Positions 3,352 through 19,114 are shown, counted from the stretch's first letter. The stretch is 32,000 nt of DNA from Chlamydiales bacterium (GCA_965261025.1 OZ253438.1:240001-272000), one strand, 5' to 3'. Numbers and translations are program-made. The notes: generated from the letters alone by a model not told the origin.

Positions 3352-3362
3352 TTAGGGTCTTC

Positions 3363-3391
3363 AAGGAGGGGAGTGTTTCTCCTCCTTTTTT
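3363..3391 (+). terminator. Rho-independent terminator candidate
   Basis: Stem AAGGAGG (3363-3369) pairs with CCTCCTT (3381-3387). Loop is 11 nt, followed by a T-run to 3391. It abuts the next ATG (3392). Confidence 0.55.
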
Positions 3392-4222
3392 ATGCAAATT
3401 CTTTGTTCTTCTGGATTTATAGGTTCTTATCTCTCTTCTTCTTTTTCCAAGCAGGGGCACAGCATAGTCCTTCTTCGTAGGAGTGATTTTTTGCTGGATC
3501 CAAGGCTTTTAGCGAAGAAAATAGAAAACTGTGAAGTCATTATCAATTTAGTGGGGGAAAGTCTTTTTTCCTTTTGGGGAGTTCACAAAAAAAAGAGAAT
3601 TTTAGAAAGTCGTCTTTTTTCTACGGAGAAACTAGTAAAAGCCTTCGGATTTTTAGAAAAGAAACCTTCTGTATTTCTCTCAGCATCTGCAGTAGGGTAT
3701 TACGGGAATAGAGAAGAGGTTCTGACAGAGCAGAGTAAAGAGGGGGCTACCTTTTTAGCCTTCGTATGCAAGGAGTGGGAAGCAAAAGCAAAAGAGGCTG
3801 AAAAGTTGGGGATAAGAACCGTTTTCTTACGTTTTGGAGTAGTTTTGGGAAGAGGAGGCTTTTTGCAAAAGAGTGCTTTTTTTGCAAAACTAGGCCTTTA
3901 CCCCATCTTAGGAGAAGGAGATCAGTATATGAGTTGGATAGATATAGAAGATCTTTTTCGAGCCCTTGGTTTTATAATAAAAACCCCTTCTTTACGTGGA
4001 GCTGTGAATCTTTGTTCTCCTTTTTTTCTCTCCCAAGGGGAGTGTGCTGATATTTTAAATGGGAAAAAAACTTCGTGTAGGATACCTTCTTTTTTATTTA
4101 GAGGTTTTTTAAGAGAATTTTTATTCTCCAGTCAAAAAGTGTTTCCTGAAAAGCTTTTACGGGAGGAGTTTGTATTTAAGTTTCCTCATTTTACAGAGTC
4201 TTTTACAAAATATAAGGTCTAA
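3392..4222 (+). CDS. Epimerase-family protein, YfcH/SDR39U1-like (DUF1731 C-terminus)
   Basis: 276 aa. N-terminus 'ILCSSGFIGSYL' aligns to the Rossmann GxxGxxG. 'SWIDIEDL' and the C-terminal 'EEFVFKFPHFTESF' resemble TIGR01777-type proteins. Confidence 0.7.
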   Translation: MQILCSSGFIGSYLSSSFSKQGHSIVLLRRSDFLLDPRLLAKKIENCEVIINLVGESLFSFWGVHKKKRILESRLFSTEKLVKAFGFLEKKPSVFLSASAVGYYGNREEVLTEQSKEGATFLAFVCKEWEAKAKEAEKLGIRTVFLRFGVVLGRGGFLQKSAFFAKLGLYPILGEGDQYMSWIDIEDLFRALGFIIKTPSLRGAVNLCSPFFLSQGECADILNGKKTSCRIPSFLFRGFLREFLFSSQKVFPEKLLREEFVFKFPHFTESFTKYKV

Positions 4223-12591: not shown

Positions 12592-13236
12592 TCAATGCAC
12601 CATTTGTCCACTAAAAATCTGTTGATTTGCAAGATCTGTTTCTATGCTGTAAATCCAGTTATTGAACAGTACTTCCTCTATAAGACAAGCATGTGTGGCA
12701 TACCTTTTTCCCAGCTTAAGTTTTTTGATCCCTTCTTGCATTTCATCTAAATGTTCTTCTTCTTCGAGAAGAATCGACTTTACATGTACTTTTGATCTAT
12801 GCTTCCGCAGCACTGCTTCGTAAATGGGATAAAATTTTTGGGCTCGAACTTCTATAGCATAAGTTACTAAAAGATAAGCAATCTTTTTCACGGAGCGTTT
12901 ATCTAGCATGCATTCTTTTATTAGGAAACGAGATATGAAAAGGTCTAATTTATTTAGGTATTGCAAAGTAGTAATTCCGCCAAGAATGGACGATGGGCAA
13001 TAATTAGGAAAAAAGGACAAAGAGACTCTTTTAATTTGCCATTTCAAATAGTGACAGTGGCGAAATTCTTCAGAGGCATGCTTAAGCATTTCTTCTTTCA
13101 CTAAAGTAGGGTGCTCACAGGCAGCTATTTTGCGAGCGCCGCAATTTTCTAAATAAGAAAGGGTATTGAGCCATTTCGCGTGAAGAATATCATTTTGGAC
13201 AATCTTAATGAGAAGAGGAATTAATTTTTTCTCCAT
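12592..13236 (-). CDS. Diiron-carboxylate (ferritin-like four-helix-bundle type) protein, fifth gene of the bio operon; function unknown
   Basis: 214 aa. Its start overlaps the bioA stop by 16 nt. Motif E30 ... E57-x-x-H60 ... E129 ... E159-x-x-H162 ('YLENCG', 'SEEFRH', 'YAIEVR', 'EEEEH'). Confidence 0.6.
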   Translation of the reverse strand: MEKKLIPLLIKIVQNDILHAKWLNTLSYLENCGARKIAACEHPTLVKEEMLKHASEEFRHCHYLKWQIKRVSLSFFPNYCPSSILGGITTLQYLNKLDLFISRFLIKECMLDKRSVKKIAYLLVTYAIEVRAQKFYPIYEAVLRKHRSKVHVKSILLEEEEHLDEMQEGIKKLKLGKRYATHACLIEEVLFNNWIYSIETDLANQQIFSGQMVH

Positions 13237-14483
13237 AAATCTCCTTCAAGGGTAAATATAATTGCATCATAGACAAGATTCAGTTCTTCTTTTGAGAAAC
13301 AGTAAGGAGGGAGAACATAGAGAACGTTTCCCAAAGGTCTTAATAAGATTTTTCTCTCGATAAAAAATTCATATAGAAAATTACCTAGAGAAGAAAAATA
13401 AGTACAATTTTCATCTTTATACTCGAGAGCTAAAATCGTTCCAAGAGATTCACACCGTTTAAGTCTTGGATGATTTTTCCATTGTTTTACAAAATTTGAG
13501 TGATACTTTTCGATCATCATTCTTTGTCTTGTACAATCTGAGGTTAGAAGAAGGTCGAGACTAGCAACAGCACTAGCACATGCTAGGGGATTAGCCGTAT
13601 AGGAATGCCCATGTAAAAGTGCTTTGTGCTTGTCTTTACAGTGGAAGAGTTTGTAAATTTCCTCTTTACAGGCGGTGGCTCCTAACGGTAAAAATCCTGC
13701 TGTGATTCCTTTAGATAAACAAATAATATCAGGATTTTCTTCTAACCTTCCGCAGGCGAAATAGGTGCCTGTTCTACCAAATCCCGTCATTACTTCATCG
13801 GCAATTGTAATAACTTCATGTTCTCGGCAAATTTTGAGAAGGTGATTCAGGGCTTTGGCTGAGTGGATCACCATTCCAGAAACTCCTTGAATTAAGGGCT
13901 CAAATAAGAAACAGGCTATTTCATTCGAGGAAAGGGCAGCTTGAAGTTCAGCAATACTTTTTTCTTCTAGACCAGAGGTGGGTGGAGTAATTGTGATTAC
14001 ATCAAAGAGATGATTCCAAAAGGGGCGATTCAAAAGGGTTTTTCCAGATACTGACATTGCTCCAAAGGTATCACCATGATAGCCCCCTTTAAAACTCACA
14101 ATTTTTGTTTTCTTTTTGCTTTTATTGTACCAGTACTGAAGTGCCATTTTTAAACCTACTTCAACGGCTGTTGAACCATTGTCTGAATAGAAAATTTTCC
14201 CCATTTTTCCTGGGAGAAGAGGAAGGATTCGAGTAGTAAGTTCTAATGCTGGTGGATGAGTAAATCCTGCAAAAATGACCTGTTCCAGCTCTAGGGCTTG
14301 TGCAGAAATTTTTTTAGCGATGTATGGGTGACAATGACCATGTAAATTGACCCACCAAGAAGAAATAGCATCTAAATAATCTAGGCCATCTTGTGAGGTT
14401 AAATAGGATCCCTCGCCTTTGATAATTTGGATAGGCTCTTTTGCTGTTTTCATTTGAGTGAAGGGATACCAGATTGCTGCCAT
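13221..14483 (-). CDS. bioA: Adenosylmethionine-8-amino-7-oxononanoate aminotransferase
   Basis: 420 aa. 'DEVMTGFGRTG' and PLP-Lys context 'CLSKGITAG'. Sits in the bio operon. Confidence 0.9.
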   Translation of the reverse strand: MAAIWYPFTQMKTAKEPIQIIKGEGSYLTSQDGLDYLDAISSWWVNLHGHCHPYIAKKISAQALELEQVIFAGFTHPPALELTTRILPLLPGKMGKIFYSDNGSTAVEVGLKMALQYWYNKSKKKTKIVSFKGGYHGDTFGAMSVSGKTLLNRPFWNHLFDVITITPPTSGLEEKSIAELQAALSSNEIACFLFEPLIQGVSGMVIHSAKALNHLLKICREHEVITIADEVMTGFGRTGTYFACGRLEENPDIICLSKGITAGFLPLGATACKEEIYKLFHCKDKHKALLHGHSYTANPLACASAVASLDLLLTSDCTRQRMMIEKYHSNFVKQWKNHPRLKRCESLGTILALEYKDENCTYFSSLGNFLYEFFIERKILLRPLGNVLYVLPPYCFSKEELNLVYDAIIFTLEGDLWRKN

Positions 14484-15073
14484 TTTTTTGCGTACCTTTG
14501 AATTGTTGATAAATTAATGCTTTTTTCTGGAAGTAACCTGCCAAGAAAGGGAACTTCGGAAAATTTTATGATTGCCTTTTCACTGTCTGGGTTGGATTTG
14601 CCGTTAAAAATGATCCCTAGAATTTTTATGGATCTTTTTTTAAGTGCCTCAATTGTGAGTAGCGTATGATTGATGCTACCTAAGTAGTGTTTTGATACAA
14701 GGATCCAGTGAGCCTTCCAGGTTTTAAAAAGATCGATGCTAAGAAGACTTTCGTTTAAAGGAACAAAAATCCCTCCAGCCATCTCAATAATCAAGGGATG
14801 ATTTGTTATAGGTGGGATGATTTTTTCAGGATGGATTATTCGGTTTTCTAAGCGGGCTGCATGATGTGGAGAAAGTGGGGCCTTAAAAGTATAAGCTGGG
14901 GGGTGAACTTTGTGATTCGAAGAAAGGAATCTTGTAATCATAGCAGAATCAGTATCGGAGGCTCCGCTTTGGACCGGCTTCCAATAATCTCCTTTAAAAA
15001 TCGTGGTAATAACTGCAGAAACAACTGTTTTACCAACTCCTGTGTTAATTCCTGCTATGATAATATCAGCCAT
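14450..15073 (-). CDS. bioD: Dethiobiotin synthetase
   Basis: 207 aa. P-loop 'GINTGVGKTVVS' and 'EMAGG'. Overlaps bioF and bioA. Confidence 0.9.
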   Translation of the reverse strand: MADIIIAGINTGVGKTVVSAVITTIFKGDYWKPVQSGASDTDSAMITRFLSSNHKVHPPAYTFKAPLSPHHAARLENRIIHPEKIIPPITNHPLIIEMAGGIFVPLNESLLSIDLFKTWKAHWILVSKHYLGSINHTLLTIEALKKRSIKILGIIFNGKSNPDSEKAIIKFSEVPFLGRLLPEKSINLSTIQRYAKKWQQSGIPSLK

Positions 15074-16145
15074 ATTGCCTTATAAGCTGGAGTAGGTTTA
15101 GGAGCTCTTTCCTTGAATTAAATGAATGGAGAGTTAGTCGGATATTTTCTTTTCCTCTTTGCACTGTTGGACTCAAAAGAGCTCGAACGTCAAATCCTTC
15201 TTTCATAATAGCTGAAACAAGCGCTAGAGCTTCTTGGTTATTTCGCACAAAAATGGGCTGAATGGCAGTAGAAGAACGGTTTGAAAGCTGAATTAGATCT
15301 TGCAAATGCACTCTTTCTGCCTCTAATTGAGGAAAGAGAGTATAACTACATTTAATAGCCGCTAAAGAGGAAAAAGGAAGGGCTGTTGTATAGATGAATG
15401 ATTTAGCAAAGTTGATAAGTGTTTCTTTTAAATGGGGATCACCCAATATAGCAGCTCCAAAGACGCCAAGCGCTTTGCCAAAGGTTACAGTTTGGGCAAA
15501 AATTTTCTTATTTAGACCTGCCTTATGAACAAGACCTCTTCCCTGATTTCCACATATCCCAATTGCATGGGCTTCATCAACGATCAAGTGAGCATGATAT
15601 TTTTGGGAGAGATGAAAAATTTCAGCTAAGGGCGCTAAAGATCCATCTGTTGAGTAAATGGATTCAATGCAGATATAAGCTTTTCTCCTTTGGGTAATTT
15701 GTGTGAGTCTATTTTCTAAATGATTTAGATCATTATGTTTAAAAGGAAATGCCTTTGCTTTAGCTAGGCGGATGCCTTCATGGGTCGAAGCATGAATATG
15801 GGCATCAAATAATAAGATATCTTCTTCTTTTGCAATGCAGCTGATTAAACCGATATTGGCCATATAACCACAATTGAAAATTAATCCAGCTTCAAATCCA
15901 TGAAATGCAGCAATCTTTGCTTCAAGTTCTTCCACATAGGTATTATTTCCTGTAAGAAGGCGAGACCCGGTTGAACCCAAATAGTTTAGGGACTCCCATT
16001 CAGAAAGCACGGCTTGTTTTAATTGCAAAGATTTTGCAAGCCCCAAATAGTCGTTGGAAGCAAAATCAATCAGATTTTCTTTAATTTGCAAAGATCGAAA
16101 ATTTCCGATTTGTTTACGTTTTAGTAGAATTTGATTCACAGGCAT
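15066..16145 (-). CDS. bioF: 8-amino-7-oxononanoate synthase
   Basis: 359 aa. 'LIVDEAHAIG' and PLP-Lys 'TFGKALG'. Sits in the bio operon. Confidence 0.9.
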   Translation of the reverse strand: MPVNQILLKRKQIGNFRSLQIKENLIDFASNDYLGLAKSLQLKQAVLSEWESLNYLGSTGSRLLTGNNTYVEELEAKIAAFHGFEAGLIFNCGYMANIGLISCIAKEEDILLFDAHIHASTHEGIRLAKAKAFPFKHNDLNHLENRLTQITQRRKAYICIESIYSTDGSLAPLAEIFHLSQKYHAHLIVDEAHAIGICGNQGRGLVHKAGLNKKIFAQTVTFGKALGVFGAAILGDPHLKETLINFAKSFIYTTALPFSSLAAIKCSYTLFPQLEAERVHLQDLIQLSNRSSTAIQPIFVRNNQEALALVSAIMKEGFDVRALLSPTVQRGKENIRLTLHSFNSRKELLNLLQLIRQYG

Positions 16146-17094
16146 AGCTCTTACGCTTTTTCAGTCCTAATAAGTTAAACATTTCTTCATCTGAGTCATT
16201 CGATGTATTTCCTACAGTGAGTAGTTTCTCACCGGCAAAAATAGAATTGGCCCCGGATAAGAAACAAAGTGTTTGCTCTTGGTATGATAACTCAATGCGT
16301 CCCGCAGAAAGACGGATCATTGATTTAGGCATAAGGATTCTAGCGATAGCAACCATCCGGATAAATTCCCAAGAGGAGAGTTTTGGTTGATTTGCTAAAG
16401 GAGTTCCTGGAATGGGGCTCAATTGATTGATAGGAACAGATTCTGGGTGAGGATTTCTATGAGATAAAGCTAAAAGAAGTTCTAGTCGATCTTCTTTTGT
16501 TTCTCCCATGCCCATAATGCCTCCACAGCAAACACTTATTCCTGATTTCTCAACAATATCAAGTGTATTAATACGATCTTGATAGGAGCGTGTGGTAATA
16601 ATTGTTTTATAAAAACGCTCTGAGGAGTCTAAGTTATGGTTATAAGCATAAAGTCCTGCTTGTTTTAATTTTTCTGCTTGAAGCTTACTTAAAAGGCCAA
16701 GTGTGCAACAAACTTCTACTCCTAAATTGGCTATCCCTTTAACCATGCGCAAAGTCTCATCAAACTGCTTACTATTTCGAACATTTCTCCAAGCGGCTCC
16801 AAGACATATTCTTGTTGCCCCTTTTATACTTGCTTTTTTGGCCGCAGCCATAACTTCTTCATATTGCATCATGGGCTGAGCTTTGACATTTGTTTGATAG
16901 TGAGAAGATTGAGCGCAGTATTTACAATCTTCTGAGCAACCTCCTGTTTTAATTGAGATCAAATGGCAAACTTGGATTTCTCCCATCTTGTGGTGCATTT
17001 TGTGAATTTTCATCGCCTCTACGATCAATTCCAAAAGAGGCTTCGAATAGAGAATTTGTAACTCCTGAAAGGTCCAGTCCGATCGAATGGTCAT
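16114..17094 (-). CDS. bioB: Biotin synthase (radical SAM)
   Basis: 326 aa. 'GGCSEDCKYCAQS' CX3CX2C motif. First gene of the operon. Confidence 0.95.
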   Translation of the reverse strand: MTIRSDWTFQELQILYSKPLLELIVEAMKIHKMHHKMGEIQVCHLISIKTGGCSEDCKYCAQSSHYQTNVKAQPMMQYEEVMAAAKKASIKGATRICLGAAWRNVRNSKQFDETLRMVKGIANLGVEVCCTLGLLSKLQAEKLKQAGLYAYNHNLDSSERFYKTIITTRSYQDRINTLDIVEKSGISVCCGGIMGMGETKEDRLELLLALSHRNPHPESVPINQLSPIPGTPLANQPKLSSWEFIRMVAIARILMPKSMIRLSAGRIELSYQEQTLCFLSGANSIFAGEKLLTVGNTSNDSDEEMFNLLGLKKRKSYACESNSTKT

Positions 17095-17158
17095 ATTTAC
17101 CTCATTATTACGGACAAGTTTAGGAAGTATCTAGTTCTGATTGCAACTGGAAGTTTGG

Positions 17159-17187
17159 TTATGTAAACCAAAAATAGGTTTACATAA
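17159..17187. promoter_or_regulatory. Perfect inverted repeat TTATGTAAACC-N7-GGTTTACATAA in the bioB / wHTH-gene divergent intergenic region (operator candidate)
   Basis: Left arm 17159-17169, right arm 17177-17187, exact reverse complements. It lies 65-93 bp upstream of the bioB start. Confidence 0.6.
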
Positions 17188-17277
17188 AACTAAATAAAGT
17201 TTGATAATAGCGGATATTGCTCAATCTGATGAAAACCTAAAAATAGTTAAATTAAACTAAAAAGAGGTTATATTTTT

Positions 17278-18072
17278 ATGTTTGAAGTGTTGTTTGGAAA
17301 TAAAAACATAGAAAAAATTCTTATTTTTCTTTTCGTGAGCGGTAGGTGTTATGGGGCTCAGTTGCAGCGAATTTTCAATACACCCCTTACGCCTCTTCAA
17401 AAAGTTCTTATCCGTCTAGAAAAAGGAGGGCTGATTTCTAGTCAATATGAAGGAAAAACGCGTATTTATCGGTTTAATCAAGGATTTCCTCTGCTGTCTG
17501 ATTTAGAACAGCTGCTTAAAAAAGCCTATACGCTGTTACCCGTTCATGAAAAGAAACTTTATTATATGGGAAATGAAAATCGTGGTTTTTATCGAGATTC
17601 TTCTACGAAAAATCTGAGTACCCTTTTTGAATTTTGGGAAAAACTCTCTTCCGTCAAAAAACTGTCTTTTTTAGCTCACTCTAAGTCCAAAGAAAGCTCT
17701 GGTTGGAATGGACATGGATCAGGGGATGTTATCGTGACAAAAACAAGCCCTAATATTCTTGTTTTTCAGGAAAAGGGTTTTTGGAAGGGAAAAAACAACC
17801 AAGAGGTGAGTTTTACAAATACCTTCCGATGGACCTTAGATCGAGTTACTGGGGTGATTTCGCTAGAACACCTGCGTCATGGTATAGAGAATCCTGTTTT
17901 TCTATTTCATTTAGCTCCTTCGGCAGCGCATTCCTTATCTTCTATTGATTCGCATCTCTGTGATGGAGACTCTTATTTTGGTCAGGCGCATTTTGACCGA
18001 TATAACTTAAAGTTAACTTGGCGTGTCATTGGACCTAAGAAAAATGAAGAGATTGAATACAGCTATCTATAG
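17278..18072 (+). CDS. Winged-HTH N-domain fused to a DUF6314-like beta-rich C-domain; putative transcription factor
   Basis: 264 aa. 'GRCYGAQLQRIFNTPLTPLQKVLIRLEKGGLISSQYEGKTRIYRFN' is wHTH-like. C-terminal 'HLCDGDSYFG...LTWRVIGPKKNEEIEYSY' resembles the DUF6314 signature. Confidence 0.55.
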   Translation: MFEVLFGNKNIEKILIFLFVSGRCYGAQLQRIFNTPLTPLQKVLIRLEKGGLISSQYEGKTRIYRFNQGFPLLSDLEQLLKKAYTLLPVHEKKLYYMGNENRGFYRDSSTKNLSTLFEFWEKLSSVKKLSFLAHSKSKESSGWNGHGSGDVIVTKTSPNILVFQEKGFWKGKNNQEVSFTNTFRWTLDRVTGVISLEHLRHGIENPVFLFHLAPSAAHSLSSIDSHLCDGDSYFGQAHFDRYNLKLTWRVIGPKKNEEIEYSYL

Positions 18073-18457: not shown

Positions 18458-19114
18458 CTAGGAAAGAGCTTCCAGTTTGTCTATGTCTAAGTGGCAGATT
18501 AGCTGTAAATTGCTATTTATTTTTTCAATATTCCAGTTCCACCAAGCAATTTTCTGCAAACGATCAATGGTTTTATCATCGAACCTCATTTTCACAACTT
18601 TTGCAGGGTTTCCAGCAACAATCGAATAAGGGGGAACATCTTTTACTACGACAGATCTAGCCGCTATAATAGCTCCATTTCCTATCTTGACTCCATTCAT
18701 CACCAAAGAATCATATCCAAACCAAACATCGTTTTCCACGATGATATCCCCTTTAACTGGCAAGTCATAGACATTGAAGGCAGACTCCCAACCGTGACCA
18801 AAGATGGGAAAAGGATAGGTGCTAATTGCATCAAGTTTATGATCTCCCGTCATGATAAACTTGGTTTCTGCGGCAATAGCGCAAAATCTCCCTATAACAA
18901 GCTTAACTTTGGAAAAATCGTAGTTGTACAAGACGTTGTATTCTTCAAACTTATCTGGTCCGTACCGACAATCATCAAAATAGCTATAGTCACCAACAAA
19001 AATATTAGAAGCCTTGACGAATTTTTTTAGGAATACAAGCTTATCATAATCTTTAATAGGGTATAGGTTGTCTGGATTTGGGCCTGTCATGCCTCGGAGT
19101 TTATTGAAATTCAA
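18458..19114 (-). CDS. vat: Vat-family streptogramin A O-acetyltransferase-like (hexapeptide-repeat xenobiotic acetyltransferase)
   Basis: Colinear with remembered Vat(A)/Vat(D): 'GPNPDNLYPIK', 'VGDYSYFD', 'IGRFCAIA', 'STYPF', 'VENDVWFG', 'GNGAIIAARSVVVKDVPPYSIVAGNPAKVVKMRF', 'WWNW'. TTG start at 19114; alternative ATG at 19090. Confidence 0.85.
   Translation of the reverse strand: MNFNKLRGMTGPNPDNLYPIKDYDKLVFLKKFVKASNIFVGDYSYFDDCRYGPDKFEEYNVLYNYDFSKVKLVIGRFCAIAAETKFIMTGDHKLDAISTYPFPIFGHGWESAFNVYDLPVKGDIIVENDVWFGYDSLVMNGVKIGNGAIIAARSVVVKDVPPYSIVAGNPAKVVKMRFDDKTIDRLQKIAWWNWNIEKINSNLQLICHLDIDKLEALS

Follow-up and report, generated by a model that had tools for sequence, protein, structure and literature searches.

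A winged-helix–DUF6314 fusion protein divergent from bioB as a candidate local regulator of biotin genes in environmental chlamydiae

The DNA analysed here is a 32,000-nt stretch of a Chlamydiales bacterium genome (GCA_965261025.1, OZ253438.1:240001-272000), called the window below, and the subject is a gene at 17278-18072 whose product joins a winged helix-turn-helix (wHTH) domain to a DUF6314 domain. The gene is divergent from bioB, the first gene of a biotin operon, across a 183-bp spacer (17095-17277), and we propose that it encodes a regulator of that operon. The candidate regulator, its two domains and the operon are placed in the window as follows.

17278-18072, plus strand: regulator gene, an open reading frame (ORF) of 264 aa encoding the wHTH-DUF6314 fusion, the candidate biotin regulator
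17278-17562, plus strand: N-terminal winged helix-turn-helix (aa 1-95), from fold matches and a weak sequence signal
17602-18069, plus strand: helix and ten-strand beta-barrel, DUF6314 (aa 109-264), the presumed effector-binding domain, from Pfam and fold matches
16114-17094, minus strand: bioB (biotin synthase), first gene of the divergent operon; TIGR00433 at 384.6 bits against a cut-off of 225, Pfam Radical_SAM and BATS
15066-16145, minus strand: bioF (8-amino-7-oxononanoate synthase); best NCBIfam match TIGR00858 at 319 bits, below the equivalog cut-off of 426
14450-15073, minus strand: bioD (dethiobiotin synthase); TIGR00347 at 113 bits against a cut-off of 83
13221-14483, minus strand: bioA (diaminopelargonic acid aminotransferase); TIGR00508 at 512.7 bits against a cut-off of 405
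12592-13236, minus strand: bioE-like di-iron oxygenase of 214 aa, last gene of the operon (pimeloyl-thioester supply); weak COQ7/di-iron Pfam match

The regulator ORF is the sole long frame at its position. It starts with ATG, with GAGG just upstream, and the start is supported by an N-terminus that can be aligned with more than 1,000 homologues; the ORF was confirmed as a real gene. A DUF6314-like domain at the C-terminus had been suspected from the sequence alone, and the Pfam search placed it above the family cut-off: PF19834 matched aa 142-263 with E=4e-9 and 37.4 bits (gathering cut-off 23.1), the alignment spanned profile positions 17-129 of 131, and the match was repeated at the DNA level. 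DUF6314 was the only family in the Pfam scan at E<=1, in which no HTH family, biotin protein ligase (BPL), TetR_N or GntR domain and no nitrobindin family appeared. The ArsR model NF033788 of NCBIfam reached 15.5 bits on the N-terminus, below its cut-off of 55. A profile search of all PDB sequences gave weak ArsR/MarR matches for the N-domain, including CmtR (E=6e-4), and none for the barrel; no close relative of the regulator family has a solved structure. Neither of the metal- and thiol-sensing motifs looked for in the wHTH (a CxC in helix 3 and a His/Asp/Glu cluster in helix 5) was found; C24 is the single cysteine of aa 1-95, and the alignment shows no conserved pair at this position.

An AlphaFold2 model of the regulator, built on 40 diverse homologues, reached a predicted local distance difference test score (pLDDT) of 90.1 and a predicted template-modelling score (pTM) of 0.83, with disorder confined to a short linker at aa 101-107. 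When aa 1-91 were compared with known folds in VIA, the best matches were HlyU (Z 10.6), the MarR protein NMB1585 (10.5), AntR and SmtB (10.3) and BigR (10.0), and the ArsR/MarR repressors HlyU, SmtB, AntR, BigR and AdcR together spanned Z 9.8-10.6. Foldseek matched the wHTH to SqrR with a template-modelling score of 0.67 and a root-mean-square deviation (rmsd) of 2.1. Among the best 50 matches listed for the N-domain, the TetR, GntR and MocR families were absent, and the matches were of the ArsR and MarR types. The barrel, which has ten or eleven strands in the model, was closest in VIA to OlmO (Z 11.1), Rv2717c (2fr2, 10.9), the THAP4 nitrobindin (3ia8, 10.8) and the phycobilin lyase CPES (10.8), followed by Arabidopsis nitrobindin (3wjb, 10.4). 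Its superposition on 3ia8, 2fr2 and 3wjb gave an rmsd of 3.4-3.7 over 137-138 residues with an identity of 7-10%. No BirA chain was found among the best 50 matches of each fold search or among the matches listed in the PDB profile search. The sequence-only reading had described a MarR/ArsR-type winged helix followed by a nitrobindin/THAP4-type barrel and had suggested that a model be compared by Foldseek, and both halves of this description held, the first by the fold matches of aa 1-91 and the second by Z-scores of 10.4-10.9 to 3ia8, 2fr2 and 3wjb. The kinship with avidin that it raised was not supported, as no avidin was found among the best 50 matches of Foldseek, among those of VIA or among the PDB profile matches listed. 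Avidin and streptavidin have an eight-strand barrel with a Trp-rich biotin pocket, against the ten or eleven strands of the model. When two copies were modelled as a homodimer the score was 0.12 against a mark of 0.42, which is evidence neither way.

The spacer contains a perfect palindrome, O1, accompanied by three weaker operator-like sites scored with a position weight matrix (PWM) and by a predicted promoter.

17159-17187: main operator O1, the perfect palindrome TTATGTAAACC-N7-GGTTTACATAA, PWM 24.5 bits
17181-17207: O2, weaker operator-like site centred 21 bp from O1, PWM 11.0 bits
17228-17254: O3, weaker operator-like site centred at -37 from the regulator ATG, PWM 11.8 bits
17249-17275: O4, weaker operator-like site centred 21 bp from O3, PWM 9.5 bits
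17179-17208, plus strand: sigma-70-like promoter of the regulator, from a consensus scan (10/12 matches, pattern only)

The four sites form two pairs, 21 bp apart within each pair, and the right half of O1 contains the predicted -35 hexamer of the regulator promoter, TTTACA. By symmetry, a TTTACA on the opposite strand would face bioB. The source genome (1.42 Mb, one contig) contains the exact O1 palindrome pattern a single time, and when 30 orthologue upstream regions were searched for TGTAAAC-N(4-24)-GTTTACA it was found in the source genome only. Since the exact palindrome is not conserved, the degenerate motif AAACY-N7-RGTTT (extended, TAAACTA-N5-TAGTTTA) was used instead, and this was present in 26 of the 30 upstream regions, often twice. 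Counted from the start of the regulator, the motifs of the 30 loci begin near -116 to -140 and near -49. The promoter-proximal site, found in about half of these loci with its start at about -49 and its centre at about -38, is the equivalent of O3. The palindrome pointed out in the sequence-only reading is in this way a member of a conserved operator family.

The operator motif is also specific in its location. A PWM was built from the sites in these upstream regions, and in forty loci of 5.8 kb nearly all of its matches of at least 12 bits fell within 150 bp upstream of the regulator. A PWM scan of the whole source genome found O1 at 24.5 bits and no other site above 14, and of the 46 sites of at least 8 bits genome-wide, three (9.5-11.8 bits) share the 183-bp spacer with O1. 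The looser AAACY-N7-RGTTT pattern was observed 19 times in this genome against an expected 11.5. In orthologues less than about 45% identical the motif takes the form ACCTA-N5-TAGGT, in which the CTA-N5-TAG core and the spacing are unchanged. The putative recognition helix (aa 37-49) is near-invariant among 70 orthologues, with T38-P39-x-Q41-K42-A43-x-x-R46; its co-variation with the operator variant is weak, K42 and T61 being more variable in the ACCTA group, and is not relied on here. In another genome, five identical copies of AAACTATTTCATAGTTT were seen within 13 kb of one contig (G244:C2:180888-193273), and these are probably a repeated element rather than an operator set.

Homologues of the regulator number 1,166 in a collection of 5.8 billion proteins. 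Identity is 60% or more in all of the best 120 listed, and the few named ones are mostly from Chlamydiales, Parachlamydiaceae and Rhabdochlamydiaceae. Among 301 genomes of the phylum, 176 had a match, about 110 of them full-length, and there was no match in one family (30 sampled genomes) and one genus (25), which from their size are probably Chlamydiaceae and Chlamydia. Full-length copies were found in Parachlamydiaceae, Waddliaceae, Rhabdochlamydiaceae, Simkania/Simkaniaceae, Protochlamydia and Candidatus Sacchlamyda. The neighbourhood was then read with tblastn and Pfam at 70 orthologue loci (the best 30 and 40 more), which range from 38 to 86% identity and come from many genera and from more than 15 GTDB families. 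Divergent from the regulator lay bioB at 34 loci, usually followed by bioF and bioD, a bioB remnant at 4, bioY at 24 and a BPL_N gene at one; one further locus lay at a contig end, and about six had unrelated neighbours (GT2, WD40, DUF6829 and others). The synteny on which the sequence-only reading had staked its link to biotin is therefore present in other genomes, with 63 of the 70 loci adjoining bioB, its remnant, bioY or BPL_N. A named set of 67 loci, largely overlapping the 70, gave bioB 32 times, bioY 19 times and remnants 4 times. No conserved partner protein was seen beside the regulator at the 70 loci.

When the 70 proteins were placed in a quick maximum-likelihood tree, copies next to bioB were interleaved with copies next to bioY, and the well-supported branches force at least six changes for each label. 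This indicates that the pairing with a biotin gene has been re-established or kept through repeated rearrangement, as expected if the link is functional and the synteny not simply frozen. In one genome (G115) the regulator is present twice, with one paralogue next to bioB and the other next to bioY. The regulator tree is discordant with genome taxonomy, the source copy grouping with two other families at 76-81% identity, and a genome of the same genus (G046) has neither bioB nor the regulator. From the discord and the double absence, the regulator and the bio genes seem to be gained and lost as a unit, and the regulator-bioBFDAE cassette seems to move horizontally between chlamydiae. At four loci (L005, L011, L025 and L065) an intact regulator stands beside a bioB remnant of 42-70 aa; the biotin operon has decayed there while the regulator frame stays open. 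At the BPL_N locus (G230, L048:3580-4395) the regulator is divergent from a gene for the N-domain of a eukaryote-type biotin protein ligase (PF09825, 226 bits), with a 15-bit operator site centred at -109. On the other side of the regulator in the window, a hexapeptide-repeat acetyltransferase gene (Pfam Hexapep, 18458-19114, minus strand) is convergent to it, and this adjacency is not conserved in other genomes.

The remaining biotin genes of the source genome bear on what the regulator might do. BirA consists of the BPL_LplA_LipB and BPL_C domains only and has no HTH (class I). The sole match to the BirA-type helix-turn-helix, HTH_11, in the whole genome is in a 138-aa frame far from birA (G000:C1:329477-329611). 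Chlamydial BirA has been stated to be class I (PMC3459881). The last gene of the operon appears, from its sequence, to correspond to BioE, the already known oxygenase that makes the pimeloyl starter and that was described for Chlamydia in a paper published in December 2025 (PMC12915131). In other genomes the regulator is paired with bioY alone. Five such genomes gave no match to the BATS domain, the four of them tested with a BioB protein gave none either, and two of the five are single-contig assemblies that are 94% and 99% complete. As these transporter-only genomes are without biotin synthase, a biosynthetic intermediate cannot serve as the signal there, which points to biotin or a direct derivative. 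The signal read by the regulator is thus probably biotin or a derivative of it and not a pathway intermediate.

Taken as a whole, these results make it highly probable that the protein is a local transcription factor of the biotin synthesis and uptake genes. It would be a one-component factor that controls biotin supply genes locally in environmental chlamydiae and that stands in for the DNA-binding function missing from class I BirA. Its ArsR/MarR-like winged helices would bind as a dimer to the palindrome AAACY-N7-RGTTT, between the regulator and the divergent bioBFDA-bioE operon here and in front of a divergent bioY in other genomes. Bound at O1, it would cover the predicted -35 box of its own promoter and, by symmetry, the TTTACA on the bioB strand. 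The three weaker sites and the 21-bp distance within each pair suggest that occupancy is cooperative, and binding would repress both transcription units. The nitrobindin-like DUF6314 barrel would be the sensor, with biotin or a direct derivative as the most likely co-repressor, such that synthesis and uptake would be turned off when biotin is plentiful. We regard it as likely that the protein is a repressor whose barrel senses biotin status. The more specific proposal that the barrel directly binds free biotin, which would make it a natural biotin-binding fold not recognised before and unrelated to avidins and BPL, is put forward tentatively, at a little short of an even chance.

Proteins that share one of the two domains were compared with the regulator. 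Conserved residues of the barrel are W169, N181, R184, W185, E197-H198-L199-R200, H226, C228, D231, Y233, K255 and Y263. R249 is conserved in the fused forms only (93% vs 25% in stand-alone DUF6314 proteins), whereas H226, C228 and W248 are conserved at 72, 82 and 65% in the fused forms vs 90, 96 and 92% in the stand-alone proteins. The source genome has a second paralogue with DUF6314 only, of 182 aa, outside the window (G000:C1:169540-170088; L076:1303-1851); it is 49% identical to regulator aa 101-263, is without wHTH and operator, and adjoins a CorA-like gene. The 106-aa ORF that adjoins one of the stand-alone DUF6314 genes was not wHTH-like. Many chlamydial genomes also encode a protein of about 115 aa that is 48-57% identical to the regulator wHTH alone (L078-L089). 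It is usually followed 3' by a gene of about 190 aa, often overlapping (for example L079:3027-3377 and 3362-3931), which was DUF2204-like (nucleotidyltransferase) in three of six copies tested. With this gene following and a biotin link absent, the wHTH-only paralogues were ruled out as split regulators. They may form a toxin-antitoxin-like pair with the 190-aa gene, and the wHTH-only protein may well be the source of, or a sister to, the DNA-binding domain of the regulator.

Several observations weigh against reading the protein as a biotin-sensing repressor of these genes. The PWM sites were chosen by pattern, which makes their scores partly circular; the location specificity of the motif and its genome-wide uniqueness are independent of this. 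The promoter assignments are consensus matches only. The genomes are related metagenome-assembled genomes and not independent, the tree was a quick one from an unfinished search, and about six of the 70 orthologues have unrelated neighbours. No operator-like site was found upstream of the source genome's own bioY (G000:C1:106390-106950), and the other motif sites in five genomes had no bioY, bioB, birA or regulator gene nearby. By these two results the regulon would be one divergent locus, and the control that the protein exerts would be strictly local. Nearly all conserved residues of the barrel are common to fused and stand-alone DUF6314 proteins, and biotin genes were not among the neighbours of the four stand-alone genes examined, whose contexts varied. 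Residues shared with stand-alone proteins outside biotin contexts make another or a broader ligand, a metal site, an ancestral enzymatic role or catalysis possible.

These points lead to the explanations that keep the biotin locus and change what the barrel does. In one, which we judge unlikely, the protein regulates the biotin locus and its barrel reads biotin status indirectly and not by binding free biotin. It could dock on class I BirA-biotinyl-AMP or on the apo or holo form of the biotin carboxyl carrier protein, or its ligand could be another metabolite, for example biotinyl-AMP or a BioE-linked fatty acyl compound; if it docked, the supply-and-demand logic of BirA would be split over two proteins. 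BirA itself reads biotinyl-AMP and the apo-acceptor, the BirA of this genome is without HTH, and no effector is known to have been established for BioQ or BioR. Nitrobindin- and fatty-acid-binding-protein-like barrels moreover bind hydrophobic molecules (heme and fatty acids, for example), and the sharing of barrel residues with stand-alone DUF6314 proteins in non-biotin contexts fits indirect sensing as well. However, the barrel is compact and closed and has conserved residues of polar and aromatic kinds, which fits a small-molecule pocket better; no conserved partner protein adjoins the regulator, and its retention in bioY-only genomes without BioE and the synthesis genes rules out pathway intermediates, and likewise the substrates of BioE, as the general signal. 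A bifunctional enzyme-regulator like BirA, in which a catalytic DUF6314 would salvage or modify biotin or a related compound, with the wHTH coupling this activity to transcription, seems improbable. It would agree with the high conservation of E197-H198, H226, C228, D231 and Y233, also in stand-alone members, with the enzymes among the closest folds (the OlmO/OssO spirocyclases and phycobilin lyases), and with the weaker conservation of H226, C228 and W248 in the fused forms, a pattern expected of an enzyme co-opted as a sensor. Yet no known biotin step is lacking, as bioBFDA and bioE are all there, the stand-alone genes lie away from biotin genes, and our literature search found neither a mention of DUF6314 nor a catalytic function for the family.

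The remaining explanations concern the direction of control and whether there is any. If the protein were an activator, or an anti-activator that biotin releases, it would turn bioB or bioY on in biotin starvation. Some ArsR-fold proteins act positively, among them HlyU, the best fold match of the N-domain, and the sites that lie about 105 to 140 bp upstream of the regulator ATG could serve one of the divergent promoters as class I activator positions. Against this, O1 overlaps the predicted -35 box, a second site near the regulator start is common, and all four known biotin regulators are repressors (BioL, PMC12915131; BirA, BioQ and BioR as established knowledge), and we hold activation to be very improbable. 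An adjacency that is merely inherited, with the protein being a generic ArsR-type sensor of metal, heme or stress, could draw on the ArsR-like wHTH, the binding of heme by nitrobindins and the relatedness of the genomes. It is made extremely improbable by a neighbour that switches among bioB, bioY and BPL_N at least six times on the tree, by the confinement of the operator to these intergenic regions and by a helix 3 in which no metal-site CxC can be read; the tree is also incongruent with taxonomy, so the pairing was kept through transfer. A local repressor with a biotin-sensing barrel remains the explanation we prefer.

Compared with known systems, the proposed regulator resembles class II BirA, which likewise joins a winged helix to a biotin-sensing module, acts at a palindrome between divergent bio promoters and targets bioB operons and bioY; in contrast, the BPL catalytic domain of BirA is absent from the regulator. 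The half-site TGTAAACC/GGTTTACA presumably resembles the half-site of Escherichia coli bioO, with a gap of 7 bp between half-sites here against about 15-16 bp in bioO. BioQ (TetR family, Actinobacteria) and BioR (GntR family, Alphaproteobacteria) are, like the candidate, stand-alone regulators that serve bacteria in which BirA is without a DNA-binding domain. They repress bio and bioY genes and control their own expression, and their genes often adjoin the target genes; BirA is a repressor as well. The DNA-binding and effector folds of BioQ and BioR are unrelated to those of the regulator, and their operator sequences differ. Nitrobindin, THAP4 and Rv2717c have the same barrel fold as the regulator, but the identity is 7-10% and no nitrobindin Pfam family matches it. 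Human THAP4, with a DNA-binding domain and a nitrobindin-like barrel, is an architectural analogue that has a THAP zinc finger instead of a wHTH. THAP4 binds heme; nothing that would link the regulator locus to heme was seen there. With the ArsR/SmtB and MarR repressors the regulator has in common the fold of aa 1-91, a weak sequence signal and, in our proposal, the logic of a dimer on a palindrome. It differs in falling below the family hidden Markov model cut-offs, in being without metal-site motifs and in having a separate fused barrel, whereas their sensor sites lie within the helical dimer.

The list of known biotin regulators in the sequence-only reading (BirA, BioQ and BioR) was incomplete and has to be extended by BioL, a MocR-family repressor of the BioE pathway in Elizabethkingia (PMC12915131); neither a MocR domain nor the aminotransferase-fold domain that goes with BioL was among the Pfam matches of the present protein. 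Its statement that the architecture found here matches none of them stands with the longer list. BioL controls a bio cluster with a BioE di-iron oxygenase, as here, and senses 8-amino-7-oxononanoate (PMC12915131). The presence of the regulator in bioY-only genomes means that it cannot depend on this intermediate. Chlamydia has been stated to lack BioL (PMC12915131), and is said to be without BioQ, BioR and class II BirA too, for which 'a novel mechanism' was suggested (PMC3459881; PMC12915131). In our literature searches for a chlamydial or ArsR-type biotin regulator, no description of the regulator protein was found. The wHTH-DUF6314 protein is a concrete candidate for the missing regulator in the environmental lineages Parachlamydiaceae, Waddliaceae, Rhabdochlamydiaceae and Simkaniaceae, and it would provide the first functional clue for DUF6314. 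If the barrel binds free biotin, the protein would be the first transcription factor to sense free biotin directly through a dedicated small-molecule domain, and it would offer both a functional handle on the widespread stand-alone DUF6314 proteins and a compact scaffold for a biotin biosensor. The operator and the protein are small and well defined, which makes the model testable in vitro and in E. coli reporters without chlamydial genetics. Comparative genomics has narrowed the effector to biotin or a derivative, whereas none is known to have been identified for BioQ and BioR, and the regulator very probably represents a fifth, undescribed and non-homologous type of biotin gene control after BirA, BioQ, BioR and BioL.

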